A stretch of DNA of 64,000 nt from an uncultured Chloroflexia bacterium. GTDB taxonomy: Bacteria > Chloroflexota > Limnocylindria > Limnocylindrales > CSP1-4. The notes under the pieces were generated by a model. It was not told the DNA's origin and did no database searches. It was given only the letters and a program-made list of their open reading frames with translations. Below are positions 6,491-37,436 of this stretch, piece after piece; the stretch's first letter is position 1, and each line of letters opens with the position of its first letter. The position numbers were made by a program, and so were the translations under genes. The stretch is from contig CAVYIV010000015.1 of NCBI GenBank assembly GCA_963768675.1, forward strand, positions 156,345 to 220,344, read 5' to 3'.

Positions 6491-6554
6491 CGGCACCCGC
6501 CGAGTAGCCGCGGCGCCCAACGTTCTCCCGCAGCGGCGGGAGACGCGGACCCGC

Positions 6555-6791
6555 TCAGCGCCGAACGGCAGCGACGTGCCCGCGGACGGATGATGTGGCC
6601 ACGGCGTCAACTCGCTCGGGCGGGGACGGCGGCGAGAGCGCGTCCACCACGTAGTGGACCGGATCGCCCTCCTGGACCCCGGCCGGCCACGGCGCCGGGC
6701 GGCTGTCCGGGTCGGGCCGGCTCCCGACGTGCCAGATCAGCACGCCCCACATCGCCGCGTAGAGCGCCAGGAGCGGGATCCAGGCGGGCAC
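6555..6791 (-). CDS. hypothetical small membrane protein
   Basis: 78-aa ORF with a GTG start and an N-terminal TM helix. No homolog recognised. It sits in a region otherwise devoid of convincing genes. Confidence 0.2.
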   Translation of the reverse strand: MPAWIPLLALYAAMWGVLIWHVGSRPDPDSRPAPWPAGVQEGDPVHYVVDALSPPSPPERVDAVATSSVRGHVAAVRR

Positions 6792-7396
6792 AGGCGGAAC
6801 CTCGAATCGACGTCGATGCTGGCTACGACGCCGAGGTCAACACCAGCAGGGCGATGTAGACCCACGACGACCGCGACCGCCAGGTAGACCCAGAGCGGGA
6901 GGCGACGTCGAGCCGACCGCAGGCGAGGGGCCGCGGTCCCACCACCGCTGTTCAGATCAGGCGCGCCAGCCGCCCCGGGACTGGCCTGGCTGCGGAACGT
7001 GTTGGGAGTTCGCTGGTCACGAAGAGTGTTGGGGCGGACCTCGGGGGAGCCGCCCGGCCGGTACGTCATGCGCCGCCTCTCCCCTGCCGGCCGGAAACGG
7101 CCTGGCTACCACTTAGCGTGCCACTGGAACGCAATGCGTGCAGGCCTCGACGCGCACGCTCGTCGATGGGTCGCGGCTGCACGCCGGATGGACGACGGCC
7201 TAACGGACCATGGCATGTAGATGGTGATGGCACCCGATCTGCGGCCGAACGGCCCTTGAACGCGGGGGGCGACGGGACGATGGTTCAGAAGTCGGGGTGT
7301 CGATGCCAGGACCTGTTGATGCGCGGGTCGATCGGGTCGCCGAACCGCGCAGGGTCGCTGGCGAAGCTGGGCTCGTCGACCCGGTGGAGGCGCACC

Positions 7397-7585
7397 ATGG
7401 CGCTCCAGCACTCGACCCGCGAGCAGAGGGCCGCACTCAACCCGGATTTCCTGCGGGCACTCCTCATCGTGGCCGCGGTCATCGTGGTGATGATCGTCCT
7501 GACCGCGATCGTCGGGGTCGGACAGACTGGCCCCTCCTACCAGATCGTGCCTGACCCAGCCAGCGGTCTCGGCCTTCCCTTCTGA
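7397..7585 (+). CDS. hypothetical small membrane protein
   Basis: 62 aa, MALQHSTREQRAALNPDFLRALLIVAAVIVVMIVLTAIVGV..., with a GGTGGAGG RBS 7 nt upstream of the ATG. Confidence 0.3.
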   Translation: MALQHSTREQRAALNPDFLRALLIVAAVIVVMIVLTAIVGVGQTGPSYQIVPDPASGLGLPF

Positions 7586-7672
7586 GCAGCCGCCTATCCG
7601 GGCGGCTCGACAAGCGCGACGTCCTTCGCCCGGTTCGTTGACATACGCCATGTTTGGCGTCAGGTTGCGGCC

Positions 7673-7897
7673 GTGGACAAGACGACGCTGTACCTGACGC
7701 CGGAGCTTCGACGCCGCCTGCGTGGCGTTGCCCGGCGCAGTAGCCGGCGGCATGCCGACGTGACCCGCTCGGCCCTCGACGCCTACCTCGACCAAGCCGG
7801 CGCGAACCGCCCGCGTTTCATCGGGGCTGGCGAGGATGACACGCTGGACGCCCGAGACACGGAGGCGTGGCTCCGCGAACGGTGGGGTCCTGCTTGA
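7673..7897 (+). CDS. vapB: ribbon-helix-helix (CopG/VapB-type) antitoxin
   Basis: 74 aa. LYLTPELRRRLRGVARRSSRRHADVTRSALDAYLD is a RHH fold signature. Its stop overlaps the start of the downstream PIN gene. Confidence 0.6.
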   Translation: MDKTTLYLTPELRRRLRGVARRSSRRHADVTRSALDAYLDQAGANRPRFIGAGEDDTLDARDTEAWLRERWGPA

Positions 7898-8303
7898 TCT
7901 CGCTCGACACATCCTGGCTCGATGCGCTGCTCAACCGGCGCGATCGGGCCCACCAGGCGGCCGGGCAGGAGCTGGAGAGTGATCCGGGCCGTATCTCGTG
8001 CCGGCGGCGACGCTCGGGGAGCTCACCTTCCTCGTCGAACAGCGGCTGGGACTGCGGGTGCTCGACCTCGTTCTCGGTGACCTCGAGTCCGGTGCTTACA
8101 CGCTCGACTGTGGCGAGGCCGATCTGGCACGCACGCGGCAGCTCGTCGGGCGCTACGCGGACCTGTCTCTCGGATTTGTCGACGCCGCCGTCGTCGCCTG
8201 CGCCGAGGGCAGCGGCGGGCGGGTACTGACATTCGACCTCGGTGACCTCGGGGTCGTGGCGGCCGAGGGGACGATCAGAGTCCTGTCGGCACCGGCCTCG
8301 TAG
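7882..8303 (+). pseudogene. vapC: PIN-domain toxin VapC, disrupted by a 1-nt frameshift near codon 37
   Basis: The N-terminal piece MGSCLISLDTSWLDALLNRRDRAHQAAGQ sits in the frame of ORF 7867..8229 (GTG at 7882). The C-terminal piece ...LTFDLGDLGVVAAEGTIRVLSAP sits in the frame of ORF 7998..8303. The frames switch at about 7990. Confidence 0.6.
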
Positions 8304-8327
8304 GCCGGCCCGCCGCCGCATGTTGAC

Positions 8328-9371
8328 CTAGACGCGCTGGTCGGTGCTTGGCTTCTCCCACAGGTTGACGCCGCTGTCGACGGCGTAGAGGTCGATCTCG
8401 GCCAGCTCGTGGGGCGAGAAGGACAGGTTCGCAAGCGCCGCGACGTTCTCGCGCACCTGCGCGGGTGAGCTTGCCCCGATGAGCGTCGAGGTCACGCGCG
8501 GGTCGCGGAGCACCCAGGCGTAGGCCATCTGGGCCAGGGTCTGCCCGCGTCGAAGGGCGATCGCGTTGAGCCCCCGCACGCGCGCCAGGTTCTGCTCGCT
8601 CAGCATTTCCCGTTCGAACGAGTCGCCGCCGGGGCGATTGATACGCGAATCGGCGGGGATGCCGTCGAGGTACTTGCTCGTCAGGAGCCCCTGCGCGACC
8701 GCCGTGAACGCGATCATGCCGGCGCCGACCTCCTCGAGCGCGTCGAGCAGCTCCGGTTCGACCCACCGGTTCAAAAGGTTATAGGACGGCTGGTGGATCA
8801 GCAGGGGCACGCCCTCCGAGCGAAGGATCGCGGCTGCCTCGCGCGTCTTGGTCGCGGAGTACGACGAGATCCCCACGTAGAGCGCCTTGCCCTGGCGGAC
8901 CGCCGTGGCAAGCGCTCCCATCGTCTCCTCGAGCGGCGTGTCGACGTCAAAGCGGTGCGAGTAGAAGATGTCAAAGTAGTCGACGCCGACGCGACGAAGG
9001 CTCTGGTCGAGGCTCGCGAGGACGTACTTGCGCGAGCCGCCGCCCTGGCCGTATGGCCCCGGCCACATGTCCCAACCGGCCTTGCTGGAGATGATCAGCT
9101 CGTCGCGGTGAGCGGCGAGATCCTCGCGCAGGATGCGCCCGAAGTTGATCTCGGCGCTGCCGTACGGTGGTCCGTAGTTGTTCGCAAGGTCGAAGTGCGT
9201 GATCCCGAGGTCGAAGGCGGTTCGCACGATCTCCCGCTGCGTCGCCATCGGCGTGTAGTCGCCGAAGTTGTGCCACAGGCCCAGGGAGAGCAGCGGAAGC
9301 CGCAGGCCGGTCCTCCCGCAGGCCCGGTACGTCATCACGTCGTAGCGCTCGGGTGCTGATAGATAGGTCAT
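8328..9371 (-). CDS. aldo/keto reductase, YghZ / L-glyceraldehyde-3-phosphate reductase-like (Kv-beta family)
   Basis: 347 aa from ATG 9371, with a GGAGGA RBS. Motifs: MTYRACGRTGLRLPLLSLGLWHNFG, DLANNYGP and SHRFDVDTPLEETMGAL. The upstream part of the 656-aa ORF belongs to a separate gene remnant. Confidence 0.85.
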   Translation of the reverse strand: MTYLSAPERYDVMTYRACGRTGLRLPLLSLGLWHNFGDYTPMATQREIVRTAFDLGITHFDLANNYGPPYGSAEINFGRILREDLAAHRDELIISSKAGWDMWPGPYGQGGGSRKYVLASLDQSLRRVGVDYFDIFYSHRFDVDTPLEETMGALATAVRQGKALYVGISSYSATKTREAAAILRSEGVPLLIHQPSYNLLNRWVEPELLDALEEVGAGMIAFTAVAQGLLTSKYLDGIPADSRINRPGGDSFEREMLSEQNLARVRGLNAIALRRGQTLAQMAYAWVLRDPRVTSTLIGASSPAQVRENVAALANLSFSPHELAEIDLYAVDSGVNLWEKPSTDQRV

Positions 9372-9405
9372 CCTTGTGCATCCTCCAGGCTGACGGGGTC
9401 GAGCC

Positions 9406-10112
9406 TCAGCCCGCTGCGGTCCACTCCAGCCCCAGGCGGGCGATCGTGTCCGGCGTGGGGTTGCCCGTTCGGCCGTCCCAGCCGGCCATCCGGTAGTAGT
9501 CGTCGAGGGCGCCCTCGATCTCCGCGTGGTCGAGCGCGACACCGGCCGTGGGGCCCGTCCCCGCGAGCGGCCGGAACATCTTGGCGGGCAGGCAGTCCTC
9601 GCTGCGTCCAGGCCCTCCCGGGCGTTGACGGTGCGCAGCATGTTGAGGCGCCGCTCGACGATCTCCATGAGCTCGTCGAGGTCGAAGTCGTCCCAGCCCG
9701 TCACGGCCCGCACAAGATCGACCGTCTCCTGCGGCCCGAACAGCGTCCAGGCCGGGCCCCACACGAACTGGCACAGCGAGGCCGTGTCGAGGAACAAGTA
9801 GAACTGCTGGGTCCGGAGCGCGAAGCGGACCTTGTCCGGGCCGAGCGACAGGAACCCCTGCGCGGCGTCGAACCCGAGGAGCTTGAGCCGCTCGAGGGAG
9901 AGATCTGCGGCGCCCTCCTCGATCATCGGGTCGTGCTCGGACGACTGGTGGTCCGCCCCGAACGGGTTCACCGCGTAGACGACCGCGAGCGATCGCTTCG
10001 CCTGGGGCATGTGGCCGGGCGCCTCGGCTCCCTTGACCGTGACGAGCAGGTCGTGGCACTTCCCGATCAGGTCGGCGGCGCGCCGCGATCCGTGCGCCAG
10101 GATGTCGCCGAA
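9406..10112 (-). pseudogene. aldehyde:ferredoxin oxidoreductase (AOR, tungsten-type) C-terminal fragment, truncated and frameshifted
   Basis: GDILAHGSRRAADLIGK...VKGAEAPGHMP...TGWDDFDLDELMEIVERRLNMLRTVNAREGL lies in the ORF 8328..10298 frame. The tail ...DCLPAKMFRPLAGTGPTAGVALDHAEIEGALDDYYRMAGWDGRTGNPTPDTIARLGLEW lies in the ORF 9406..10296 frame. Only about 235 of ~600 aa are present, and the N-terminal W-binding domain is absent. Confidence 0.55.
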
Positions 10113-10367
10113 GCCCTCGCGCCTGGCCGACGTGGAGGATCCGGCCGGTGAACTCGCCTGGCACTCGCCTGCCTCCCATCGGTTGACCTGGGCACGCGCC
10201 CCGGAACCGGCGCCCGGGAGCCCCGGCTGCCGGGAGCCCGAACCCGCGTCCGCGACGCCTCTCTCGCGCATCTTCTTCCACGGCGAGGGCCGACACAACG
10301 GGAACCGGGAGAGCAGGTGGCGGAAGAGCGGGCCGGCCGCGGCGGAAGAGCGGGCGGCGGCGGCGCG

Positions 10368-10967
10368 CTACGCCCGGCGGACGAGCGCCTCGCGCTGGAT
10401 GGCGAGGAGCGACAGGGCATCAGTGATCCGCCCGTCCATGGTCATCGCCAGGGCGTCGTCGAAGGACACCCATTGCGTCGCCAGCTCCTCTGTCCCCTCG
10501 GGCGAAGGCGCGCCGGCGGCGAGGTCGGTCGCCACGAAGAAGACCGCGAGCTCATCCGTCACGGAGTTCGAGAGCGCGGCCCGGCCGAGCTCCCGCCACG
10601 TCGCCGCCTGGTACCCGGTCTCCTCGGCGAGCTCGCGCCTGGCCGCATCGAGAGCCGACTCGCCCGGGCCACCGCCGCCCTCCGGGATCTCCCACGAGTA
10701 CGCGTCGAGCGGGTAGCGATGCTGCCCGACGAGGACGACCCGATCGCCCTCGTCGATGGCGAGGATCCCGATCGCGCGATGGGCGAAGTGCACCACGCCG
10801 TAGATGCCGGGCGCGCCGTCGGGCCGGATGACGTCGTCGTGCCAGACGGTCAGCCACGGGTTCTCGTACACGACCCGGCGGGCCGTGCGCCGCCAGGGGC
10901 TCTCCGCCCGCGCCGGCCGGGCGACGGCAGGAGCTTCCGCCGGAGCTGATCCTCTGCGCCTGGCCAT
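10368..10967 (-). CDS. NUDIX hydrolase (ADP-ribose pyrophosphatase-like)
   Basis: Carries the Nudix box GGGGPGESALDAARRELAEETG. Confidence 0.8.
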   Translation of the reverse strand: MARRRGSAPAEAPAVARPARAESPWRRTARRVVYENPWLTVWHDDVIRPDGAPGIYGVVHFAHRAIGILAIDEGDRVVLVGQHRYPLDAYSWEIPEGGGGPGESALDAARRELAEETGYQAATWRELGRAALSNSVTDELAVFFVATDLAAGAPSPEGTEELATQWVSFDDALAMTMDGRITDALSLLAIQREALVRRA

Positions 10968-11171
10968 CGGTGATCTCCCTCCGCCTGCGCTTGCGACCGG
11001 AACGTCTGGGCCGGCCTCACAGACGGCCCAGGATGAACCTGGTGAGCGTCTTCGTATGGTCCATGCTGCCGGAGCTCACCTCGAGGATCCGGACCCGGAT
11101 CACCCGGGCTCCCAATCCGTGCCGCCGTCGGCCGCGAACCACGGTCGACTGCATCCCGCACCCGGCGCTCA

Positions 11172-11574
11172 TCGTGAAACTCAACGGCGACCCTCTCGCC
11201 CTGCTGCGCAGGCCGAGCACCGGCTACCTTGCTACCTCGATGGCCGATGGTTTGCCCCAGGTGACCCAGAGCCTGGGTCGATACGGACGGCGAGCATGTC
11301 ATCATCAATACGGTCCAGTCCCACCTCAAGGTCAGGAACATCGAGCGCGACCCTCGCGTGGCTGTCGCGATCTCGAGCCCGGAGGTCGCTGCCCGCTACT
11401 ATCAGGTTCGCGGTCGGATGGTGAGCACGACGACCGACGGCGGCGGCGAACACATCGAGATGCTCTCCATGAAGTAAACCGGCAGGCCCTATCCCTGGTA
11501 TGGGGGCGGGACCAGGTGCGGGTGATCCTGACGATAGAGCCGGAACACGTGAGCGGCATCAGGTAGAGCGCGGC
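11172..11574 (+). pseudogene. PPOX-class F420-dependent enzyme (pyridoxamine 5'-phosphate oxidase fold), three lesions
   Basis: Pieces in three frames: ...LLRRPSTGYLATSMADGLPQVT | (+1 shift) WVDTDGEHVIINTVQSHLKVRNIERDPRVAVAI...YYQVRGRMVSTTTDGGGEHIEMLSMK-TAA(in-frame stop at ~11476)-TGRPYPWYGG | (shift in a G-run) RDQVRVILTIEPEHVSGIR. Confidence 0.5.
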
Positions 11575-11736
11575 GGTTCGGGCCGAGGAACCGTGGCCGC
11601 GTTGGCCAGCGCTCGTCGACGCGTACAGCCGGGACGTTCAGGCCGGCGGCTGGATCACCGGGAGCGCGCTAGGCTGTGGCAGCGGAGTGGCCGGACCGAG
11701 CCCACCCGCCGCGCCGGGCCCGCGAAGAGGAGATCC

Positions 11737-12543
11737 ATGACCACGGAGACGATCCACGAGGAGGTCCGCGCCCGGTATGCGGCCGCGGCGCTCCAGGCAA
11801 GCGCCGGCGGCTGCTGCTCGGGCGAGCCCAAGCCGATCGGCCTGGCGCTCTACTCCGCGCTCGAGCGGGCGGAACTGCCCGAGGCGGCGGTCCTCGCTTC
11901 GCTCGGCTGCGGCAACCCGATCGCCGTGGCGGAGCTGCGCGAGGGCGAGCGCGTGCTTGACCTCGGCTCGGGTGGGGGGATCGACGTGCTCCTGTCCGCC
12001 AAGCGGGTGGGACCCACCGGGCGCGCCATCGGCCTCGACATGACCGACGAGATGCTGGCCCTGGCCCAGCGCAATGTCGCCGCGGCCGGGGCAACGAACG
12101 TGGAGTTCGTGCGCGGCCACATCGAGGAGATCCCGCTCCCCGCCGAGTCCGTCGACGTGGTCATCAGCAACTGCGTCATCAACCTCGCCGCCGACAAGCC
12201 CGCGGTGTTCCGGGAGATCGCGCGCGTGCTGCGGCCCGGCGGACGGATGGGCGTGACCGACATCGTCGCCGAGGACCGGCTCACCGCCGAGGAGCGTGCC
12301 GCGCGCGGCTCCTACGCCGGCTGCATCGCGGGTGCGCTCTCCTTCTCGGAGTTCCGGGCGGGGCTCGAGGCGGTCGGTCTCAGCGACATCTCCGTCACGC
12401 CGATGCATGCCGTCGCCGACGGGATGGTTAGCGCCATCGTGAAGGCGACCAAGCCAGCCGACGCGAAGCCGATGATCGACCTCAAGCTGCCCGAGCTGCC
12501 GGTCGTCAGCAGCGGCTGCTGCGGGGGAGAGGGCTGCTGCTGA
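11737..12543 (+). CDS. arsM: arsenite S-adenosylmethionine methyltransferase
   Basis: Carries the SAM-MTase motif [12 protein letters not shown], an N-terminal CCSGEP Cys pair and a C-terminal [11 protein letters not shown], which is typical of ArsM/AS3MT. A GAGGAG RBS precedes the start. Confidence 0.85.
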
Positions 12544-12974
12544 TGCGGATCGAGCGGGCGGAGCCGTTTGACGTCCCGGCCGTCGAGGCGCTCCTGACGA
12601 TGGCCGGGCTCCCGCTGGCGGGCGCAGCGGAGGCGCTCGAGACGGGCGTGGTCGCTCGCGACGGCGAGGCTGTCGTCGGTGCCGCATCTGTCGAGCGATA
12701 CGGCTCGGCCGGGCTCCTGCGGTCGGTCATCGTCGCGCCGGATCGACGGGGCGCAGGCCTCGGCCGCGACCTCGTGGCGGCTGCCGAAGAACTCGCCCGG
12801 GGCGAGGGCATCCGCGAGATCTACCTGCTCACCGAGACCGCGATTGGCTGGTTCCCGCGCCTGGGCTACGCGGCCGTGCCGCGCGGCGAGGCAGCGGCGG
12901 TCGTTGGCCGCTCGATCGAGTTCACCACGGCCTGCGCAGAGACAGCCGTCGCGATGCGCCGAGCGCTCGCCTGA
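12543..12974 (+). CDS. arsN2: GNAT N-acetyltransferase, arsenic-resistance ArsN2-like
   Basis: 143-aa GNAT protein (RRGAGLGRDLV...) whose start overlaps the arsM stop (ATGA). The ArsN2 family is commonly found in ars operons. Confidence 0.65.
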   Translation: MRIERAEPFDVPAVEALLTMAGLPLAGAAEALETGVVARDGEAVVGAASVERYGSAGLLRSVIVAPDRRGAGLGRDLVAAAEELARGEGIREIYLLTETAIGWFPRLGYAAVPRGEAAAVVGRSIEFTTACAETAVAMRRALA

Positions 12975-13002
12975 CGGGTCCGGCCGGCACGGGGTATCGG
13001 CA

Positions 13003-13454
13003 TCAGCGCGAAGCGAGCTCCCGCCGCGCGCGACGGGCAAGCTCGACGAACGGTCGAATGCGCATTGTGAGCTGCACCTGGGTCGCCCGGAAGGCCGCGA
13101 GCTTCTCTTCGTCGGACCCTCCAACTCGGCCGGGTCGTCGAGGCCCCAGTGGAGCGCGTTGTGCTCGCCCGGGAACACGGGGCAGGCCTGGCGGGCCCGG
13201 TCGCAGACGGTGATGACGTAGTCCCACGGCTGGTCTAGGAACTCCGCGACGGACTTCCCCCGCGCCAGGGACCAGTCGATCCCGACTCGGCGAGGACTCG
13301 CACGGTGTACGGGTTGACACCTTTCGGATCGGTGCCTGCGGAGTGGACCTCGAACTCCGGCCCGCCGATATGCCCGCAGGAGCGCCTCGGCGATCTGGCT
13401 GCGGGCAGAGTTGCCGGTGCACACGAAGAGGACGCGGATCGGTCTGCTCGGCAT
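13003..13454 (-). pseudogene. arsC: arsenate reductase, LMW-PTP/thioredoxin-coupled type, with three single-nt frameshifts
   Basis: CTGNSARSQIAEALL is the P-loop. GGPEFEVHSAGTDPKGVNPYTVRVLAESG lies in the ORF 13235..13582 frame. IDWSLARGKSVAEFLDQPWDYVITVCD...HWGLDDP lies in the ORF 12312..13832 frame. The C-terminal GSDEEKLAAFRATQVQLTMRIRPFVELAR lies in the ORF 13003..13422 frame. Indels fall in short G/C runs. Confidence 0.6.
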
Positions 13455-13832
13455 CGAGGTGGCCTCCATGGGGCGATGGGCTCGGCCGGCGGCGCGAACG
13501 GTCTGATCGAGATCACCCAGTTCAGCGTCGAGCCGCTCGAGTTCGACGCGATGGCGTTCGATGGCTGCCCGCTGCTCGGCAATCAGCGGCGCGAGGTCGG
13601 CGTCGATGTCGCCCCGTTCGAGACACAGCCGGGCAAGCCGTCCGGCATCCAGCGGCCTGAGTCCGAGCCGTCGGAGCGCGACCACGAGCCGCAGCCGGGC
13701 GAGGTCATCCGGGCCATAGGACCGATACCCATTCGGCTGCCGGGTTGCCGATGGGAGGACGCCGGTCTCCTCGTAGAAGCGGACAGCCGAGGCCGTCACG
13801 CTCGCCTGCTTCGCCAGCTCCGCCACGTTCAT
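13455..13832 (-). CDS. MerR-family HTH transcriptional regulator; reads in-frame into the downstream arsC
   Basis: The N-terminus MNVAELAKQASVTASAVRFYEETGVLP...GYRSYGPDDLARLRLVVALRRLGL is a MerR DNA-binding domain followed by a coiled coil. No stop codon occurs before the arsC start at 13454. Confidence 0.6.
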
Positions 13833-13838
13833 GCTTTG

Positions 13839-13869
13839 AGACTACACCTTCAAGTCAGTTTAAGGTCAA
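13839..13869 (-). promoter_or_regulatory. MerR-type promoter: -35 TTGACC, 19-nt spacer with dyad ACCTT-N9-AAGGT, -10 TAGTCT; the transcript is essentially leaderless
   Basis: Read on the minus strand the sequence is TTGACCttaaactgacttgaaggtgTAGTCTcaaagcATG. The overlong 19-bp spacer and the inverted repeat between the hexamers are the hallmark of MerR-family-regulated promoters. The ATG lies about 7 nt after the -10. Confidence 0.45.
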
Positions 13870-14012
13870 GCCAGCGCCTTGGCGTGGATCCTGCCGGGGA
13901 CAGGACTCGGGCCCGGGGGCATACTCCGCCGATCCGGGGGGCCGCGGACCGCCATGGCCAGGCCGAACCACCGGAAATGCGCATCTGGCGCGAGAGGGGG
14001 GTGGCCGTGAAC

Positions 14013-14674
14013 ATGGAACTTGTCGACCAGGTGTTGCACACCGCGGCGGCCGTGCTTGCGAGCGGGGCGATCTCAGGGAACGGGCACGGCAACGTCAGCC
14101 TGCGCGTTCCGGGCGCGGAGGAGATGTACTTCACCTCCGCCTCGTCCCTGAACGGGCTGGGGCCGGACGGCATCGCCCGCGTCGCGCTCGACGGGACGCT
14201 GCTGGAGGGCACCCTGCCTCCATCCAGGGCGCGGTCGTGGCGATGCACACGGCGATGTACCAGGATCGGCCCGACGTCGGCTGCGTGATCCACACGCACT
14301 CGCCGTTCGCGACCGCGTTCGCCGTGGCCAACCGCCCGATCGACTGCTGGATCGAGGCCCTCGCGATGTTCGGGCTGGCCGACGGCGTGCCGGTCGCGGC
14401 CTACGGGCCGCGCGGATCCGAGCAGGCCGTGGGCAACATCCGCGCGGCGGTGCGACCGGGAGTTCCGGCCGTCCTGCTCGCCAACCACGGCGTGCTCGTG
14501 TTCCACCGCACCCCGGACCTGGCCGTCCTCGTCGGCGGGGTGGTCGAGGAGGCCGCCCAGGCGGCGATCAACGCGCTCGCGCTGGGCGGTCCGGTCGAGA
14601 TCGCCGCCGACCTCCGCGCCGCGGCGCTGCAGCGGGCGATGACGTTCGAGACTGCCGGCACGAAGACCGCCTGA
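14013..14674 (+). pseudogene. class II aldolase/adducin-domain protein (FucA / MtnB-like) with one frameshift at ~14225
   Basis: The N-terminal piece NGHGNVSLRVPG...MYFTSASS...LDGTLLEGTLPPS lies in frame 0. The remainder IQGAVVAMHTAMYQDRPDVGCVIHTHSPFATAFA...ANHGVLVFHRT lies in the ORF 13745..14674 frame. Confidence 0.6.
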
Positions 14675-21171: not shown

Positions 21172-21909
21172 GCCTGATCGCCCCCTCCGATTGTGGTCAG
21201 CGCGCGTGCCGTGAGCACCGCCGCGAGATGGGCCCGGTAGACAGACGAGCCGCGGAAGTCCGCGGGCGGATCCAGCTCCGCGATTTGCTCCGGATCCACG
21301 AGCACCGGGTGGGCGGCGACCCCCGACATGGCAGTCCGCGTCGTGCCGGCGGCGTCGCGGTGAGCCACGACCATCACGATGGGACGGTCCATCGGCGTGC
21401 GAGCGGTTCCGTGCGCCGCGGCCTGACCGCCCACGGGGACCGTGACGCTCGTGATCACGGCTCCCGCGAGCACGTGTGGGTCGCCCAGGACCGCCTCGAG
21501 CGGGATGTCGGCGATCGAGCCGGGCCGCGCGATGCTGACCCGGGCGCCGAAGGCGAGAAGCCCGGTGAGCAGCGGGCTCTCCGGGTCGGCCGCCCCGACG
21601 GTGCCGCCCACGGTCGCCGCCTCGCGGATGGTGCCCGGCGCCTCGAGACGCGCCAGATCGCGAAGCGTCCCGGGGACCAGGCCCGAGTCGACGACCTCCT
21701 GGAGTCGGGTCATCGCCCCCAGGCGGACCCATCCGCTGCCCGGTCTCGATGCCGCCGAGGTGCAGCGCCTGCAGGTCGACCGCCGCGGCGGACGTCCGGC
21801 CGGGACGTGCGTTGAGGGTCGTTCCGCCGGCAAGGACGACAGCGTCGGGGAGCGCAAGTAGCGTGAGCGCCTCTTCGAGCGTGAGCGGCCGGTAGTACTT
21901 CATGTTCAC
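21168..21909 (-). pseudogene. xanthine dehydrogenase-family FAD-binding subunit (CoxM/XdhB-like) with one frameshift at ~21740
   Basis: The N-terminal piece MKYYRPLTLEEALTLLALPDAVVLAGGTTL lies in the ORF 19606..21909 frame. The remainder GWVRLGAMTRLQEVVDS...GTIREAATVGGTVGAAD...FRGSSVYRAHLAAVL lies in the ORF 21168..21857 frame. Confidence 0.6.
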
Positions 21910-21919
21910 GTCCGACTCT

Positions 21920-22912
21920 TCACTCTTCCAGCCTGTCGTTCACGCCCTCCCGGGCGGCCGCGCAGGCAAGCTCAGGCGCAGGGGATGATGCGGGACGGCA
22001 CTCGCCCAATGGTACAGGCCTGCTCAACGGGCGACGCCTCGCAGCCGCCCTACGAGGGCCGCGCGCACCCGCTTCGGGATGCGCGCGACGAAACGAGCGC
22101 CGGAGCAGGCCGACGTGTGGCTCGGCGGGACGCGCCTTCGCGGGCAGGGCAAGGTAGGTCCGGTCTCGCGGGTGCGGCGGCAACCGGTTCGAGGGCTCCC
22201 GGTTGGCGCCCCGCTCGACGAAGGCGAGGTTGTGGTAGAAGCTCACCGACCTCACGGACAGGTCGAGGGTGCTCGGCACATAGCCCGGAACGTCGAGCTC
22301 GGCGTAATTGAGCCCGTCGGTGAGCGCCTGCAGGAAGGTCATCGACGTTCCTGACCGATCGGCCCCGCTGGAGCCTCCATACGTTCGCTCCCAGTACGAC
22401 GTCTGAAGGTCTTCGATAGCGTAGATCCCGCCCTCGGTGAGGTGACCGAACAGGTGCCTGAAGCTCGCGATCACGTGCGCGCAGACGTGGCTGCCGTCGT
22501 CGACGATGACGTCGAACGGGCCATACCGGCTCGCGACCTCGTCAAGGAACCGCGGGTCGCTCTGGTCCCCCTGGAGAACGACGATCCGGTCCTCGGCGAT
22601 CCCCGTCTTCGGTTGGATGTCGATGCCGACGATGCGCGCCAGGGGGAAGAACTCCTTCCACATCCGGAGTGACTCCCCGCCCCTCTCGGGATCGGCGTAG
22701 CCGCCGATGCCGATCTCGAGGAGCGTGATCGCCCGTTCGCGCAGGTGGCCGAGATGCCGCTCGTAGGCATCCGCGTACGAGTGGGCGCCCTCCTTGTCGG
22801 TGCGCATCTCCCGCGCGATCTCGCGGAGTGACCGTTCGCTCACGACGAGGTGCCTCCTGGGTGTGGAGCGGGCCGGACCGGCTACGCCGGGGGCCGGCGG
22901 AGACGCCACCAA
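21920..22912 (-). CDS. class I SAM-dependent methyltransferase (Methyltransf_24 / TylF-MycF-like O-methyltransferase); the C-terminal ~90 aa are low-complexity, possibly a lost stop
   Basis: LLEIGIGGYADPERGGESLRMWKEFFPLARIVGIDI is a SAM-binding motif I, and DVIVDDGSH is present. The family is normally ~230-260 aa, whereas the ORF is 330 aa. Confidence 0.45.
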   Translation of the reverse strand: MVASPPAPGVAGPARSTPRRHLVVSERSLREIAREMRTDKEGAHSYADAYERHLGHLRERAITLLEIGIGGYADPERGGESLRMWKEFFPLARIVGIDIQPKTGIAEDRIVVLQGDQSDPRFLDEVASRYGPFDVIVDDGSHVCAHVIASFRHLFGHLTEGGIYAIEDLQTSYWERTYGGSSGADRSGTSMTFLQALTDGLNYAELDVPGYVPSTLDLSVRSVSFYHNLAFVERGANREPSNRLPPHPRDRTYLALPAKARPAEPHVGLLRRSFRRAHPEAGARGPRRAAARRRPLSRPVPLGECRPASSPAPELACAAAREGVNDRLEE

Positions 22913-23039: not shown

Positions 23040-24078
23040 ATGGTCCTCCGGGAAGGCTCGCGCCTCCGGTGGGGCGGGGACCTGCGGCGGCATTACGTCC
23101 TTGCGGCGCTGGCCTCGCGAAGGGACGCCGCCGATGTCGACGGCTGGTCGGCCGGCCGACTCCGCGACGCGCTCCGGGCGGACCGCCGCCGACCCTGGGA
23201 CGCCAGGCCTCGGCTCGCCGCGGCCACGATGCTGGGCACCGAGGTCCTCGGCCGCGGCCGCCGGGCGAACAATCCCCTTCGCCGTCGACTTCCACGATGA
23301 CCCGGTCGCGCAGAACGCGGCCTTGAGCGTCGAGGTCGATCGGGCGTGGCTGGAGCGGGCGGTCGAGCGCAAGCGGCGCAACCTCGATGCGTTCCGCTGG
23401 CTGGTGGTCCCGTCCCCCGAGCTCGCCGCGCTCGCCGGGCTCGAAGCCGACCGGACGATCGTGGCGGGCAACGGCAGCGACACGACGCTCATCCGGCCGC
23501 TGCCCTGGCCGCGCGAACCGGCGATCGGCTTCATCTCCGGCGCGGCCGCGGGACGCGGCATCGAAACCCTGATCGAGGCGGCCCGCCTGGTCCGCATCGC
23601 GGTGCCGGAGCTTCGCCTGCTCCTCTGGCTGGCAGCGACCGGCCCGGCCGGCGAGACCTACCTGGACGATCTGCGGCGATCGACCACGCCCGACCCGTGG
23701 ATCGAGTACGCCGCGGCCCCATACCCGGAGATCGGGGCGCAGCTGGGCCGGGCAACGGTCCTGTGCGTGCCGAACCCGTCCGTCGCCTACTGGGACGCGG
23801 TCTCGCCCGTCAAGCTCTTCGACTGCATGGCCGCGGGACGCCCGGTGGTCGTCACCCCCAGGACGGTCATGCGTGCCGACGTCGAGCGACATCGCGCCGG
23901 CCTCGTGGCGCCCGGCGACCGCGCGGAGGACCTGGCGGGTTCGATCGCCCGCTTGCTGGCCGACGAGCCGCTGGCCCGTCAGCTCGGGGAGAACGGGAGG
24001 GCCGCGGTCGTCGCCGAGCACGACTGGCGCTCCATCTCGGAGTCCCTGGCTGCCGAGCTCGTCCGCCGGGACGCCTGA
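23040..24078 (+). pseudogene. GT-B glycosyltransferase (GT1/GT4-like) with one frameshift at ~23290
   Basis: The C-terminal domain (ORF 23008..24078 frame) is PVKLFDCMAAGRPVVVTP...GENGRAAVVAEHDW. The N-terminus MVLREGSRLRWGGDLRRHYVLAALA lies in the ORF 22794..23300 frame. Confidence 0.45.
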
Positions 24079-24200
24079 GACGGACGCCATGGCCTCGTGG
24101 GCCCGCCGGTCTCGACGACCGCGGACGAATGCAGGACGACGCGTGGCGTGAGGATCGACCCGTTCGGCGGAGCCCGCAATCGGTACGGCCGCGCCGACGG

Positions 24201-26326
24201 ATGGCGACGGCCGGAAGAGGCGTTCTCCTGCTGGCCGCCGCCGCGCTCGTGGTCGGGGTGGCATCGCGCCAGGCCGATCCGATCGAGGGCTTCTCGCCCG
24301 GGGGCGCCGTGGCCGGGCTGGCCGCCGAGCTGCCGACGACGCTGCCGGCGGCGATCGTCGTCTCGATCGCCATGCTCCTCAACCTCGCCGCGGGCGCCGT
24401 GGTGCTCCGCCTGGTTCGTCGGGCCCCGTTCGCCACTTGGTCCGATCTTCTGCTGGGCGGATTCGCCGGAGCCGTACTCCTCGACGTGCTGCTCGTGTTC
24501 GCGCTGGGCGGGGTCGGGACGTTTCGCCAGCTCCCGCTGGTCGTGATCCTCGCCGTCACGGTGGTCGCGGGATCGCGTGCGCGCCCCTTCGTCGCGCAGC
24601 CGTTCCGGGGTGGGCGCACGTGCTCCCGGCCCGCTGGCTGCTGGTCGGCCTCGTCTGGTCGGTGCCGCTGCTCCTCGCGCTCTCCTCGCCGGTCGTCCCG
24701 TTCGTGGATGAGCTGCCGAACCATGTCGCGCCGGCTGAGCACCTCCGGGTGTTCGGCCAGATCGCGTCGCTGGCCACGTATCCATCGCCGCTGTACGGCC
24801 CGTCGCGGCTCTTCCTCGGCTATGCCGGGCTGATGGCCATGCTCTCGACGCTCGCCGGCATCCCCGCCGCACTGGCGATGTCGGCGTCGGTTGGATCGCT
24901 CACCTTCCTTTCGGCGGTCGCCGCGCGACGGCTCGCATCCGCACTGTTCGGCCGCGATGCGGGTTTCTGGGCGCTGCTGGCCTTCCCGCTCTCGTTCACG
25001 TTTGTCCGGCTCTCTGACGCGCGGGACAGCGTCGTGGCCCTGCCGCTGGCCGCGCTCGCACTGGCGATCCTGGTGGTCCGTGGAAGGCAGGGAGGAGCGG
25101 CCGGTCCGGCCCGCGCAGGGCCCGACTGGCTGCTTGCGGCCTCTCTCACGGCATCGATCCTCGTCCACCCCCTCGTGGGGGCGCTGACCGTCGGCACGGT
25201 TGCCCTCCTGGTCGTCGCCGACCCCGGCCGCTACGCTGGACGCGCGATCCCGGCACTCTCGGCGGCGGCATCGCGGTGCTTCCCGAGGTGGCGGTGATGG
25301 TGGGGCTCGCGCCGGCACCGCCATGGGGGATTGCGGCCTTCGCGGCCGCAGTGGTCGTCGCGATCTGGGTGAGCCGCGCACTGCATCTCGCACCCTGGAC
25401 GAAGATCCCGCCGTTGCTGGCGACCGCCGGCCTTCTTCTCGCTGGCGCGCTGGCGCTTGCGATCGTCGCTGTCGCCCTGCCGGGGGCGCCGGCGCAGGCA
25501 GCCCGGTGGATCAACCCCGCGTTTCCGTTTCTGTTCGCGACGGCAGGCCTGGCCGCTCTCGGACTGGGGGCGGCGTGTCGTGGTGGTCGCCGGGTCCTGC
25601 TGGCGCCGCTCGCCGCCGGCGGCGTCGCGCTTCTCGCGGTGGCCGTCATCCCGGGCTCGTCGATCCTCGCGCAGGCATTCCACTACGAGGTCCCCAAAGC
25701 CGTTGGGTACTGGCTGCCATGGGCCTGCGTCCCGGCGGCCGCGGGCCTCGTGGCGGCCGTCACCCGCCGGCGCGGTCCGGCGATCGTCCGCGCGGGGCTC
25801 GTCGCGGGCTTCCTGGCGGTCGTGCTCCTGCCGTTCGGGTCACCCGTTCCGGACTCGGTCCAGGCTTCGCACGCCGTGGCCGACGATCTCGCGTACGACC
25901 TGCGGACCGCCGAGCTGGGCGGCTGGCAGGGCTACGGCGACTCCCGGCTCGTCGTGGATGGGGCCGGCCGTTCGCTCCTCGACTTCCTTCGCCAGGAGAT
26001 CGCGACTGGACGATTCACGGCGGACACGCGGGTGCTCCACGTCGCGAGCAGCTACCAGCCGTGGGCCAACGTGCCGATCGCGGTCTTCACCGGTCTCGAG
26101 GAGACGGTGCGTGTCCGCGGACGCCACCGTCGACATCTTCACGGCCGGAGGCCGCATCTACCCCCTGTCGACGCTGGATGCGGATCTCCACGCCGGGTTC
26201 ACGGCCGTAGTCCTGGAGCCGGCCGGCCTGCCCGCCTCGGTCCGGTTGGCCATCCTCGATGCCGGCTATCGGTCGGTCTTCGCGAACAGCTCGGGGGAGG
26301 TCCTGGTCGCCCCGGCGCCCGGGTGA
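24201..26326 (+). pseudogene. large polytopic membrane protein with a C-terminal soluble domain (GT-C-like glycosyltransferase or polysaccharide polymerase?), spread over four ORF fragments
   Basis: Successive TM-rich pieces lie in ORFs 23346..24833 (from MATAGRGVLLLAAAAL), 24437..25297, 25276..26376 and 25457..26326. No diagnostic motif was recognised. It is adjacent to a GT and an MT, which suggests a degraded glycan locus. Confidence 0.3.
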
Positions 26327-26456
26327 CCTCGCTGATCGGTCCGATGCGAGACAATCCGATCGGTCGAGGCCCATGAGTTCCAGCGGTACCTCGACGTGCT
26401 GCGCCGGACGCGCCACCGTCCGCGAACGTGAGCAGGCCAGCGATGGGAGAGCCAGC

Positions 26457-26831: not shown

Positions 26832-26853
26832 GCCGACGGGACGTCTCCCGCCG

Positions 26854-27369
26854 ATGGCCTGGCTGGTCGAGCAGGCTGATCCGTCGGATGGCCCGGAGAT
26901 CCACGAGGTCGTTGCCCGAGCCTTCGGGCGGGAGGACGAAGCGGAGCTCGTCGAGCGGCTGCGTGCCTCGGATGTCTGGATTTAAGGGCTCGCGCTCGTG
27001 GCCCGGCCGCCCGGAGAACCTCACGGCCCGATCGTCGGCTTCGCGGCGCTGAGCCGGATCACGGTCGGCGGACGCCCGGCGCTCGCGCTCGCACCCGTCG
27101 CGGTGGCGCCCGAGCGGCAGCAGACGGGGGCGGGCTCGGCGCTCGTGCGAACGGGCATTGCGCGTGCCGCAGACCGTGGCGAGCGCCTGATCCTCGTCCT
27201 CGGTGACCCGCGCTACTACGGCCGGTTCGGGTTCCGGGCCGCCATCCCCATGGGCATCCATGGAGCCTACGACGAGGCGGGCCCAGCCTTCCAAGCGCTC
27301 GCGCTGCGCGGAGCGGGCCTGATCCCGAGTGGGCTCGCCGTCTACCCGGACCTGTTCGCCGGGCTGTGA
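26854..27369 (+). pseudogene. GNAT N-acetyltransferase, YhbS-like, interrupted by an in-frame TAA at 26983..26985
   Basis: MAWLVEQADPSDGPEIHEVVARAFGREDEAELVERLRASDVWI-TAA-GLALVARPPGEPHGPIVGFAALSRITVGG...YYGRFGF. The two parts are collinear with E. coli YhbS (LREDGFLTLGLVA...) and lie in the same frame. The stop sits where a sense codon is expected. Confidence 0.5.
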
Positions 27370-27460: not shown

Positions 27461-28377
27461 ATGCAGATCGACGACGTGCGCCGCGTCCTCATCATTGGCA
27501 GCGGCACGATGGGCCTGCAGATCGGGCTCCAGTGCGCGACCCATGGGTACGAAGTTGCCCTGTACGACATCGAGCCGGCCGCCCTGGACGCCGGGATGAC
27601 TCGCCTCCGCGCCTATGCGGATGAGCAGGTCAGGGCGGGCGTCATCGATGCCGGGTCGCGCGAGCGGGCGCTCGCCGCCATCACGACCACGACCGATCCG
27701 GCAAGGGCAGCCGAAGAGGTCGACTTGGTGAGTGAGTCGGTGCCCGAGGATCCGGCGCTGAAGGGACGGGTGCTCGGCCAGTTCGACGCGCTCTGCCCGA
27801 CTCGGACGATCTTCACGACCAACACCTCGTCGCTGCTGCCGTCGATGTTCGCCGCCGAGACGGGACGGCCCGACCGCTTCGCGGCCTTCCACTTCCACCT
27901 GCCGGTCTGGGCGGCTAACGTGGTCGACGTGATGCCCCACCCCGGAACCTCATCGAGACGATCGAGGTGCTCCTGGCCTTCGCCCGACGTATCGGGCAGA
28001 TCCCGATCCACCTGCGCCAGGAGAGCTACGGCTACGTCTTCAACGCGATGTACACCGCGGTCAACGAGGCGGCACTCACGCTCGTCGCGAACGGCGTCGC
28101 CTCGCTCGAGGACGTCGACCGGGCCTGGATGGGGATCTTCAAGATGCCCATCGGCCCGTTCGGGATGCTCGACGGCGTCGGGCTCGACACCACCTGGCAC
28201 ATCGCCGACTACTGGGCACGCCAGACGGGAGACTCGCAGCGGCGCCGCAACGCCGACTTCCTCAAGACGTACCTCGATCGCGGCTGCCTAGGCGCCAAGA
28301 GCGGCGAGGGCTTCTACCGCTACCCCGACCCCGCCTACGCCCGATCCGGCTTTGTCGAGGTAGAGGGCCGGATCTAG
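27461..28377 (+). pseudogene. hbd: 3-hydroxyacyl-CoA (3-hydroxybutyryl-CoA) dehydrogenase with one frameshift at ~27950
   Basis: The N-terminal Rossmann piece VLIIGSGTMGLQIGLQCATHGYEVALYDI...FTTNTSSLLPSMFA lies in the ORF 27329 frame. The C-terminal dimerisation domain ...IHLRQESYGYVFNAMY...GPFGMLDGVGLDT lies in the ORF 27967..28377 frame. A GGAGGAG RBS precedes the start. Confidence 0.65.
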
Positions 28378-28443: not shown

Positions 28444-28476
28444 CACACCCTGTCGGCAAATAGACAAGGAGACGGC

Positions 28477-28836
28477 GTGAACCTGAACAGCATCCTGATC
28501 GGATCGGCGGATCCGCAGCGTCTGAAGGACTACTACGCCAGGCTCTTCGGCACGCCCGGCTGGAACGAGGGTCCGTACAGCGGGTGGCAGCTCGGGACGG
28601 GCTTCCTCAGCGTCGGGCCGCACGACCAGGTCACGGGCGGCAACGCTCAGCCGGGACGGCTGATCTGGAACATCGAGACCTCCGACGTCAAGGGCGACTT
28701 CGAGCGGCTCAAGGCGGCCGGTGCCACTGTGATCCAAGAGCCCTACCAGTTCGGTGATCCCGCCGAAACCTGGATCGCCACGTTCGCCGATCCCGACAAC
28801 AACTACTTCCAGCTCCTCAGCCCGATGTCGATGTAG
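28477..28836 (+). CDS. VOC / glyoxalase-bleomycin resistance family protein
   Basis: 119 aa with a GTG start after an AAGGAGA RBS. The paired beta-alpha-beta-beta-beta architecture is plausible. Preceded by the conserved TATACT leader motif (see findings). Confidence 0.6.
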   Translation: MNLNSILIGSADPQRLKDYYARLFGTPGWNEGPYSGWQLGTGFLSVGPHDQVTGGNAQPGRLIWNIETSDVKGDFERLKAAGATVIQEPYQFGDPAETWIATFADPDNNYFQLLSPMSM

Positions 28837-28886
28837 CTGTAGCTGTGCTTCGCAGGGACGACAGGCGGGCCTGCCTGTCAGCGCCC

Positions 28887-29324
28887 CTACCCGAGGCGCT
28901 CGAGGACCACCACGGGGATGACGCGGGTCGTGCGGCGCTGGTACTCGGCGAAGTTCGGGTTGAGCGCGGCGTGCCGGGCGAAGAGCCGGTCGCGCTCCGC
29001 CCCCTCGGTCAGGCGCGCCCGCGCCTCGAACGCCTCGCCGCCCACCTCGACGGTAACGAGCGGGTTCGCGACAAGGTTGTGGTACCAGGCCGGGTGGACC
29101 GGAGCGCCGCCCCTCGAGGCCACGATCACGTGGTGCTCGCCCGCGCGGGAGTAGACGAGCGGGGCGAGGCGCGGCTGACCGCTTCGCGCGCCCGTCGTCG
29201 TCAGGAGCAGGACCGGGCGACCGGCGAAGGGGCCGCTCGTGACCTGGCCGCCGCTGGCCCGGAAGTCGGCGATGAGCGCCGTCGTCATCGCCGCGTAGGC
29301 GGCCCGGGGATCTGGCTGGGTCAT
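28887..29324 (-). CDS. deazaflavin (F420)-dependent nitroreductase family protein, Ddn/DUF385-like
   Basis: Has the split-barrel signature ...VLLLTTTGARSGQPRLAPLVY...HPAWYHNLVANP...VEV. Confidence 0.7.
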   Translation of the reverse strand: MTQPDPRAAYAAMTTALIADFRASGGQVTSGPFAGRPVLLLTTTGARSGQPRLAPLVYSRAGEHHVIVASRGGAPVHPAWYHNLVANPLVTVEVGGEAFEARARLTEGAERDRLFARHAALNPNFAEYQRRTTRVIPVVVLERLG

Positions 29325-29335
29325 AGATTCAACCC

Positions 29336-29797
29336 TCAGGCTCGGATCGTCTCAACGAGGGCCCGTCGATCGAGAAGCAGGTCGAGGGCATCGGTGATCG
29401 AGCGGCACACCACATCCGCGACCCCGAGCGTGGGACCCGCGGCTCCCTCCGGCCCGAGGATCGCGATCCCCAGCCGGGATGCGCGGAACATCGCCTCGTC
29501 GTTGCGTCCGTTGCCGATCGCGACCGTGTGGTGGGCACCGATCCCCCGGACAAACGCCGCCTTGTCGGCGCCGGTTCGAATGGTCGTGACCGACACGCCA
29601 AGCCGGTCCCCGAGGGCATTCGCGGTGCCCAGCGTGTCCGCGGTAACGATGTGCAGCGCGAGGTCGCCGGCCAACTTCTCGAGTCGCTCCGCCACGCCAT
29701 CGATCAGCTCGCCCCGGTTTGTCAGGGTGCCGTTGATATCGAGGACGAGGTGCTCGAGCCGGATCGGATCGGCGCCCGGGATCTCGATCGTGAGCAA
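29336..29797 (-). CDS. HAD-superfamily hydrolase, COG4087-type small phosphatase
   Basis: Carries LVLDINGTL (HAD motif I), ...HIVTADT... and AIGNGRNDEAMF (motifs III/IV). Confidence 0.65.
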   Translation of the reverse strand: MLTIEIPGADPIRLEHLVLDINGTLTNRGELIDGVAERLEKLAGDLALHIVTADTLGTANALGDRLGVSVTTIRTGADKAAFVRGIGAHHTVAIGNGRNDEAMFRASRLGIAILGPEGAAGPTLGVADVVCRSITDALDLLLDRRALVETIRA

Positions 29798-29820
29798 GTT
29801 TCCAGCCCTCCTGTCTGTGT

Positions 29821-30226
29821 TCAGGCGGTCACGACCGTCAGGCCAAGCGCGCGCGCAGCCTGCGCCTGGCGGAGATCGAACGTCACGAAGCCGAACCCGG
29901 GTGCGGAGACTCGTTGCGCGGCCGCGAGATGGAGGGCATCGAGGGTTCGCACGCCGGTGGTCTCCGCGATCGAGGCCGCCGATTCGCAGGTTGCCTCGTC
30001 GAGCTCGATGATCGAGAAAGAGCGCAGATCGTCGGCGAACGCGGCTCGGGCGGCGACGAGGTCGCGTCCCGAGAGCAGGCGAGCGAGGTTGCGGCGAACC
30101 TCAACGATCGTATGGCGGGCAGTGAGCAGCTCGCCGTCGGCTCGCAGCAACGCGTCCGCGGCGGCCGAGTCGGCCTCCTCGACGTACCGCTTGAGGAGGG
30201 CGCTCGAAATCGACGTAGGCGCTCAC
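29821..30226 (-). pseudogene. vapC: PIN-domain toxin VapC with a +1 insertion at codon ~7
   Basis: The GTG at 30226 overlaps the antitoxin TGA. VSAYVD is followed by an extra T in a TTT run, and then SSALLKRYVEEADSAAADALLRADGELLTARHTIVEVRRN... continues in the ORF 29821..30150 frame to ...FVTFDLRQAQAARALGL. Confidence 0.6.
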
Positions 30227-30483
30227 TCGCCGCGATCCTCGGCCAGCGCGTCGAGCACCCGCCTGGACGCCATCGACCGGCGCACCGGACCAAGCGGCGA
30301 ACCGGTGCCCGGCGTGATCCAACCTGCGCGAATCCCGTCCTCGATGCGCGCGCGACCGGGCACCGGACCGAGCACCGCCTTCGGCCGTCCGCGGTCGGTT
30401 ACCCGCAGCACCTCTCCCCGCTCTGCCCGATCCAGGTACTCGGAGAGGCGCTGTTTCAGCTCCCGGATCCCGACATCAGCCAT
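30223..30483 (-). CDS. Phd/YefM-type antitoxin
   Basis: The 86-aa N-terminus MADVGIRELKQRLSEYLDRAERGEVLRVTDRGRPKAVL is characteristic of Phd/YefM. It sits immediately upstream of vapC. Confidence 0.6.
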   Translation of the reverse strand: MADVGIRELKQRLSEYLDRAERGEVLRVTDRGRPKAVLGPVPGRARIEDGIRAGWITPGTGSPLGPVRRSMASRRVLDALAEDRGE

Positions 30484-37429: not shown

Positions 37430-37436
37430 CAGGCTG

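Follow-up and report, generated by a model that had tools for sequence, protein, structure and literature searches.

The stretch of DNA analysed here (hereafter the window) comprises 64,000 nucleotides of contig CAVYIV010000015.1 from an uncultured Chloroflexia bacterium, has a GC content of 71%, and carries a selenium-dependent molybdenum hydroxylase (SDMH) module, many of whose genes, along with a number of their neighbours, are interrupted by frameshifts or stop codons. We mapped 33 such lesions in the window, comprising 31 indels and two in-frame TAA codons. The lesions fall into two zones. Zone 1, at 7310-27952, holds 29 of them (27 indels and both TAA codons), and zone 2, at 54118-57329 on the minus strand, holds the other four, all of which are +1 insertions in ssnA and xdhD. 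None occur in the 26.2 kb separating the zones, nor in the outer 7.3 kb at the start and 6.7 kb at the end of the window.

Raw lists of open reading frames (ORFs) are uninformative at such a GC content. Lesions were therefore mapped with a codon-usage hidden Markov model (HMM) that permits frame switches, with Pfam scans of the frame-corrected translations, and with blastn and tblastn comparisons against related DNA (80 genome loci, 80 metagenome loci and 8 contigs around a GNAT homologue). A frame plot based only on the GC content of third codon positions was too noisy and was dropped in favour of the HMM. Pfam domains continue across the frame switches in the AFOR_C fragment, PPOX, the class II aldolase, selD, yqeC and yqeB, and likewise in the Mo-hydroxylase large subunit, its FAD subunit, hbd, ssnA and xdhD. 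Both TAA codons, the three-frame arsC and the split vapC are evident from direct reading of the sequence. HMM, Pfam, sequence comparison and direct reading all concur that the lesions exist and are concentrated, as a first-pass annotation of this DNA had proposed.

If lesions were spread at a uniform rate, a lesion-free gap of 26.2 kb would have P ~1.5e-4; for the whole set of 33 to be confined to 42% of the window would have a probability of 0.425^33, or ~5e-13, albeit with zone limits that were drawn post hoc, from the lesion data themselves. The clustering of lesions far exceeds chance. The first-pass annotation had located it at 6500-30300, which holds for zone 1, and had noted the second, smaller zone in ssnA and xdhD only briefly. 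Its list of uninterrupted genes (ygfK, two GS genes, the Mo subunit at 46.9-49.0 kb, pgm, fumC and kaiC) stands, except that Mo subunits are not wholly spared, as the one at 18.3-21.2 kb belongs to the broken genes. The lesion-free stretch at 30300-54100, which includes kaiC, the AmmeMemoRadiSam genes, a second xdh operon and ygfK, served as an internal control. GC content was rejected as a cause of the clustering, since lesion and clean zones alike span 0.69-0.75 GC, and so was a mobile-element boundary, since the sole tRNA gene (Pro, 43612-43688) is not at either zone edge. No insertion sequence elements were associated with the bulk of the lesions.

Zone 1 begins with one indel at 7310 in an unnamed gene. 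The first vapC, encoding a PIN toxin (7867-8303, plus strand), has a net -1 change at ~7990 and survives as two ORF pieces corresponding to the N- and C-terminal halves. Further along lies a remnant of an aldehyde:ferredoxin oxidoreductase (AFOR) gene (9418-10127, minus strand), in which Pfam finds only positions 178-385 of the AFOR_C profile and which has a -1 deletion at 9609. The PPOX/PNPOx-like gene (11174-11566, plus strand) has three lesions, namely a +1 insertion at ~11273, a TAC-to-TAA change at 11475-11477 and a -1 deletion in GGGGGCGGG at ~11507. Three lesions are also present in arsC, of the LMW-PTP type (13000-13470, minus strand), at ~13367 (+1), ~13285 (-1) and ~13118 (-1), as judged from ORF pieces in register and from the HMM frames. 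The class II aldolase gene (13998-14669, plus strand) has a -1 deletion at 14221, in the third position of a Pro codon.

The SDMH genes follow on the minus strand. The selenophosphate synthetase gene selD (14762-15845) carries a -1 deletion at 14928 and a +1 insertion at 15287; yqeC (15987-16690) carries +1 insertions at 16059, 16186 and 16223 and a -1 deletion at ~16465; yqeB (16693-17494) carries a +1 insertion at 17089/17090, where TGC and TGT alleles stand in tandem; and xdhC (17488-18279) is intact although it lies inside zone 1. In the Mo-hydroxylase large subunit gene (2Fe-2S and Mo-binding; 18276-21168) there is a -1 deletion at 19535 and there are +1 insertions at 19728 and 19883, and the FAD-binding subunit gene (21171-21915) has a +1 insertion at 21742. 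The methyltransferase gene (22024-22843, minus strand) is affected only at its 3' end, by a +1 insertion at 22081, such that its product is 307 aa with an out-of-frame tail, compared with 272 aa in relatives. On the plus strand, the glycosyltransferase gene (GT1 family; 23212-24073) has a +1 insertion at 23249, and the gene for a large membrane protein (24150-26330) has four lesions, at 24218 (-1), 24610 (+2), 25269 (-1) and 26110 (+1). A GNAT gene (YhbS-like, 171 codons; 26854-27369, plus strand) is interrupted by TAA at 26983-26985, and hbd, encoding 3-hydroxyacyl-CoA dehydrogenase (27461-28377, plus strand), has a -1 deletion at 27952, in the third position of a Ser codon. A second vapC (PIN; 29821-30222, minus strand) was also listed as broken in the first-pass annotation. 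Its Pfam match begins at profile position 15, an upstream stop is followed by no later start codon, and neither a start codon nor the catalytic Asp is found upstream of the match, but no specific lesion was pinned. In zone 2, ssnA has +1 insertions at 54118 and 54238 and xdhD at 56231 and 57329; the extra bases are lacking in all 10-31 relatives covering each site, and the Pfam domains are split across frames.

Related DNA pinned 24 of the indels to the base, while the remaining seven, in PPOX (2), arsC (3), vapC and at ~16465 in yqeC, were located only to within ~10-20 nt. Uncultured Chloroflexota under the label 'Candidatus Limnocylindrales' supply the closest genomes, several being Nanopore metagenome-assembled genomes (MAGs) of the Microflora Danica (MFD) catalogue. 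Tests based on relatives cover lesions outside arsC and the two vapC genes, and null distributions were taken from simulations on the window's own genes and their relatives. The indels are strikingly uniform in size: 30 of 31 are exactly 1 nt, the other being +2, and insertions number 18 against 13 deletions. The comparison with relatives revealed no in-frame or larger coding indels specific to the window, though the relatives differ mutually by such events. Among the 15 pinned insertions, the longest run at the site is 1 in ten cases, 2 in three, 3 in one and 4 in one, compared with background frequencies of 34%, 46%, 15% and 4% for run lengths 1 to 4, and so homopolymers are not enriched at insertion sites. 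On these run-length statistics we rejected homopolymer sequencing error as the main class of lesion. Nor do the data agree with the first-pass suggestion that indels in short G/C runs are errors and those outside such runs reflect real decay: most insertions lie outside the runs, ten of the 15 where no base is repeated, and it is exactly these, including a T insertion in yqeB that had been singled out as genuine, that bear the signature of an artefact.

That signature is the side-by-side presence of two alleles. At the yqeB insertion at 17089 the window reads TG-C-T-CAC where relatives have either TGC or TGT, and at 16223 GT-C-T-GCC stands in place of the GTC, GTT or GTG of relatives. Similar tandem pairs are found at 19728 (TC-G-C), 16186 (GG-A-C) and 26110 (GT-G-C). 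Overall, 13 of the 15 pinned insertions admit a reading as two adjacent synonymous alleles of a third codon position, where simulation gives an expected fraction of 0.316 (binomial tail 1.7e-5), the codon pairs including CTC/CTG, GCG/GCC, GGA/GGC, GTC/GTT, TGC/TGT, TCG/TCC, CTT/CTC, ACC/ACG and GTG/GTC. Another way to view the same sites is to ask which base must be removed to restore agreement with each relative, so that variation among related genomes stands as a proxy for population polymorphism. For all eight testable insertions in zone 1, the relatives split between removing base q and removing the adjacent, different base q+1, which random simulated insertions in this zone do 26.8% of the time (p = 2.7e-5 for 8/8). 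Because the relatives split in this manner, the window holds both of the alleles that are found among them. The split signature is seen in two of the four zone 2 insertions, where the null is 0.37, and over both zones it is seen in 10 of 12 testable insertions (p ~4e-4). The positions and sizes of the indels and their codon-position signature are all direct observations.

Mutation and random read error should both be indifferent to codon position and to the bases present in relatives, and the footprint therefore favours a consensus made from two haplotypes. We consider it likely that most of the indels are consensus artefacts that arose at single-nucleotide polymorphisms (SNPs) when two strains were merged in a long-read metagenome assembly. 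The sampled population would comprise two or more haplotypes, nearly the same along most of the contig but set apart by numerous SNPs, mostly synonymous ones, within 7.3-28 kb and 54.1-57.3 kb, and the assembler would have merged them into a single contig. At a balanced SNP column, a read with the other allele could be aligned as an insertion plus a deletion. A polisher that took the insertion but not the deletion would leave both alleles in place (+1), while one that took the deletion but not the insertion would lose the column (-1). Strings of single-base frameshifts would then arise in genes that are intact in real cells, and DNA in which the population does not vary would stay free of them, like the clean stretch of 26 kb. 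This collapsed-strain model accounts for the single-base size of the indels, their occurrence in both signs, their avoidance of homopolymers and their kilobase-scale clusters, as well as for the lack of a substitution excess and the location of the zones in variable, rearranged DNA. In zone 2, identity to the closest relative, L084, is 90.8-96.4%, against 96-97.6% in the flanks, as expected for a SNP-rich stretch.

A simpler artefact is conceivable, in which random long-read errors accumulate in stretches of very low depth, such as accessory DNA that only a minority of the cells possess, and strain SNPs play no part. Single-base events would be expected in this case too, the clusters (24 kb and 3.4 kb) match the scale of long reads, and R10.4 consensus worsens below ~40x (PMC9262707). 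Frameshifts of their own occur only in those relatives that are Nanopore MAGs, and the contigs of run ERR11594402 in the Logan raw-read k-mer collection cover the genome just sporadically. However, random error gives no reason for the split (10/12) or synonymous-tandem (13/15) signatures to stand so far above their nulls, homopolymers are not enriched, and the indels are accompanied by no detectable excess of substitutions, a comparison of low power. Thus, we think it unlikely that low depth by itself explains the lesions. Presence in Logan was also tried as a proxy for read depth and rejected as uninformative, since of the proteins present in the sequence collection 7/7 intact ones of the lesion zone and 9/9 of the clean zone alike have no counterpart in Logan.

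Several observations sit less comfortably with a collapsed-strain consensus. Two of the four zone 2 insertions lack the signature, and one of these two, at 56231, sits in a C4 run. The deletions, for which relatives are few and placement is ambiguous, say little for or against the model: those at 14221 and 27952 take out third-position bases, and the one at 19535 does so only if what was lost is the third position of the Lys codon and not the neighbouring G of GTC. The two TAA codons, being substitutions, fall outside the proposed mechanism, and the PPOX lesions are found exactly in a contig of raw-read k-mers, so real frameshifts do exist in the region. Local depth, the existence of two haplotypes and the balance between their alleles have been inferred and not seen in reads, as has the exact behaviour of the polisher, and we found no explicit published description of a polishing artefact that leaves alleles in tandem. 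Finally, the source technology and pipeline are deduced from contig size and relatives: a contig of 398.5 kb from an uncultured soil-type member of the Chloroflexota, together with MFD Nanopore relatives, points to long reads, probably Nanopore. The MFD long-read MAGs were built from Nanopore data only, with metaFlye and one round of Medaka (PMC12313526). Strains of one species are collapsed by Flye into a consensus, and frameshifts in assemblies of this type are due in large part to indels (PMC8302730).

The collapsed-strain model and genuine gene loss make different predictions about selection. Genuine, recent pseudogenisation of the SDMH module (selD, yqeB, yqeC, the Mo and FAD subunits, ssnA and xdhD) and its neighbours would explain why lesions strike functionally linked genes at two loci and spare the unrelated genes that lie between, in a region that is structurally plastic, where the PPOX lesions are present in raw-read k-mers and where GNAT is truncated in the sister genome L003 too. 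We compared substitutions unique to the window with those unique to an intact sister, polarised by an outgroup. In zone 1, over 4,793 sites, 180 substitutions are unique to the window and 153 to L003, distributed over codon positions 1/2/3 as 30/21/126 and 24/22/99, respectively, which gives 51 changes at positions 1+2 in the window against 46 in the sister. In zone 2 the counts are 107 for the window and 82 for L084, with third positions dominating. Relaxed selection on the window's lineage was thus not detected in the triplet tests of either zone; there is no substitution excess and no shift to codon positions 1 and 2. The substitution pattern indicates that the broken genes have been under purifying selection for essentially the entire history of the lineage.

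In bacterial mutation-accumulation studies, substitutions reportedly outnumber indels by 5-10 to 1. If that ratio applies here, the eight indels in 4.8 kb, were they neutral, should be accompanied by ~27-50 additional changes at positions 1+2, of which ~5 are observed. Nor is the indel spectrum a natural one, which would show mixed sizes, a deletion bias and repeats, rather than 30/31 events of 1 nt with insertions in the majority, and pairs of synonymous third-position alleles (p ~2e-5) are unexpected from mutation. Moreover, two members of the module, ygfK and xdhC, are intact. We regard pseudogenisation of the module as distinctly improbable. The earlier view of a decaying accessory region mixed with some error is correct as to the uneven distribution, the rearranged accessory structure and the presence of a few genuine lesions, but not as to the bulk of the lesions, which are best explained as marks of microdiversity rather than of decay.

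Close relatives tell the same story. The affected genes are intact in every short-read or Joint Genome Institute (JGI) relative examined that carries them, except for GNAT in L003. In L163, a JGI sequence at 93.7% nucleotide identity, the genes that are broken in the window have intact products of 964, 244, 272, 282, 725, 171 and 305 aa, with the Mo-hydroxylase subunit at 964 aa and the large membrane protein at 725 aa. The intact state of these relatives and the absence of relaxed constraint are, like the footprint, shown by the comparisons. The technology behind the short-read relatives was deduced from contig naming, megahit- or SPAdes-style names denoting short-read k-mer assemblers. By this classification no relative-specific frameshifts occur in ~50 kb of SDMH cluster from short-read relatives, whereas three Nanopore MFD MAGs carry three frameshifts of their own in ~20 kb, all single-base insertions, in L007 (~window 21686) and L009 (~window 17026 and 21352). 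The baseline error of the MFD catalogue in the SDMH cluster is therefore ~0.15 per kb.

Real indels could also arise at strain-polymorphic sites, for instance if faulty mismatch repair of heteroduplexes, following recombination between diverged strains, left both alleles or neither. This would account for the coincidence of indels with sites that vary among relatives and for their location in a recombination-prone accessory region, and if it were true, the SDMH module would have been knocked out at two loci almost simultaneously. However, we know of no precedent for both alleles being kept in tandem at ~1-2 sites per kb, and ~15 genes would have been inactivated at once in a free-living organism while remaining intact in every short-read relative examined. 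The footprint itself is the sole support for mis-repair, to which we give very little credence.

Collapsed strains do not account for every lesion, and the PPOX gene and the AFOR remnant are probably true pseudogenes. Two Logan contigs from run ERR11594402 belong to the window's strain: L001, with 99.935% identity to window 32767-38938, and L002, with 100% identity to window 10064-11775. Logan retains only k-mers seen at least twice (PMC12424806). L002 contains all three PPOX lesions as well as the junction between AFOR and a NUDIX gene at 10127, and since a polishing artefact is impossible in raw k-mers, we take these lesions and this junction as probably real. They are also the only ones that a Logan contig of the strain spans. 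The PPOX lesions differ in kind from the tandem-allele type, consisting of a C added beside a C, the TAC-to-TAA change and a loss inside GGGGGCGGG, although the loss in the G run could alternatively be a systematic base-calling error. As for the AFOR gene, its 5' part is replaced by a block carrying NUDIX, PPOX, arsM, GNAT and arsC.

The status of the GNAT gene at 26854-27369 is less clear. Its stop codon lies in a cluster of four substitutions within six bases (CTCCCA to ATTTAA, 26980-26985), in which each C has been replaced. It displaces a Pro that is kept in the nine closest of ten aligned homologues, the most distant having Ala. L003 has a GNAT without its first ~50 codons (window 26842-27008), and truncated versions of 111 aa occur elsewhere. 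These comparisons suggest that GNAT may truly be dying in this clade, with a local miscall being a possible source of the stop. The replacement of every C to give ATTTAA in a 71% GC genome would be odd for a single mutation.

The other Logan contig, L001, samples the clean part of the window and differs from it at only four places, three of them G (window) versus A (L001) and one a G indel (34565, 34570, 36533 and 37687). Three of these differences are at three of L001's four AATTCG sites, and the G/A difference at 34570 is 5 nt from one such site. This looks like motif-specific (methylation-type) ambiguity in base calling, or SNPs between strains that are linked to the motif.

The accessory character of zone 1 is plain from its gene content, which varies among relatives by the presence or absence of selD, of the 2.2-kb membrane-protein gene and of a block of arsenic, NUDIX and PPOX genes. 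The block, of ~3.8 kb (10127-13900), comprises NUDIX, PPOX, an ArsM-like SAM methyltransferase with Cys motifs, a GNAT, and a MerR-like HTH joined to arsC. At its site L005 and L006 have the 5' portion of AFOR (1.4 kb) together with a glyoxalase gene, and an extra 1.8 kb separates AFOR from the aldo-keto reductase in both. selD adjoins yqeC in the window and in some relatives (compared: L007-L009, L015 and L016) and is missing from L004, L005 and L006, where only ~50 nt separate the end of yqeC from the aldolase gene. The selenium-donor gene of the SDMH module is thus itself variable within the clade. L003 is without the 725-aa membrane-protein gene (window 24143-26329), while L163 and L164 have both that gene and the full 5' part of GNAT; these presence/absence polymorphisms directly adjoin the glycosyltransferase gene. 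The yqeC-yqeB-xdhC-Mo/FAD cluster (window 15980-22030; L010-L082) is syntenic, at 75-88% protein identity, between Chloroflexota and many MAGs of Acidimicrobiia/Actinomycetota, which suggests that the whole module has spread horizontally, though binning errors in the MAGs are possible.

Some features of the window may mislead annotation in other ways. A 656-aa ORF (8328-10298, minus strand) joins the first piece of the AFOR fragment to the aldo-keto reductase in one frame, and gene callers will list it as a chimeric protein. The MerR-type HTH reads stop-free into arsC (12312-13832, minus strand), through either a fusion or a lost stop, and the spurious 506-aa ORF so formed extends over the GNAT and methyltransferase genes of the opposite strand. 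Within the lesion-free stretch, an intact AmmeMemoRadiSam trio (radical SAM, Memo and AMMECR1; 44629-46678 and 43781-44488) adjoins tRNA-Pro(CGG) at 43612-43688 and lies directly upstream of the second intact xanthine-dehydrogenase-type operon (46.9-50.4 kb).

The value of these results lies chiefly in data quality, and their biological interest is low. If most of the indels are artefacts of collapsed strains, ~15 genes in the MAG would be misannotated as pseudogenes or split proteins, including a complete selD-yqeB-yqeC-xdh selenium-dependent hydroxylase module, and consensus errors would underlie any account of a 'decaying island'. Since the footprint, single-base insertions in the form of tandem synonymous third-position alleles, is computable from the sequence and its relatives alone, it could help to spot stretches of collapsed strains in long-read MAGs without access to the reads. 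The remaining biology is probably ordinary, consisting of a PPOX pseudogene, an AFOR remnant left by insertion of the arsenic/NUDIX block and possibly a dead GNAT.

Four known systems bear comparison with the window. True pseudogene clusters also have several lesions per gene and gene remnants, and the window has a remnant in AFOR and three k-mer-confirmed lesions in PPOX, but the bulk of the window differs in showing no relaxed constraint, no indels >2 nt and more insertions than deletions. Methylation-motif miscalls between purines in Nanopore data resemble the differences between the window and L001 at or near AATTCG, which are a separate and minor phenomenon of the clean part and not the cause of the frameshifts. 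Nanopore indels from homopolymers or low coverage, as exposed by the IDEEL test, are coverage-dependent single-base events that fragment genes in Nanopore-only MAGs (PMC9262707; PMC12313526), and R10.4 data require ~40x coverage for a near-finished consensus (PMC9262707); in the window, however, only 1/15 insertions is in a run >=4, and the lesions go together with positions at which relatives differ. The window also resembles strain-oblivious consensus, as made by Flye or metaFlye with Medaka or Racon, in which conspecific strains are merged, quality falls where the strains differ and indels break ORFs (PMC8302730), with the distinction that the footprint of side-by-side synonymous alleles is derived from this window and not from a published description.

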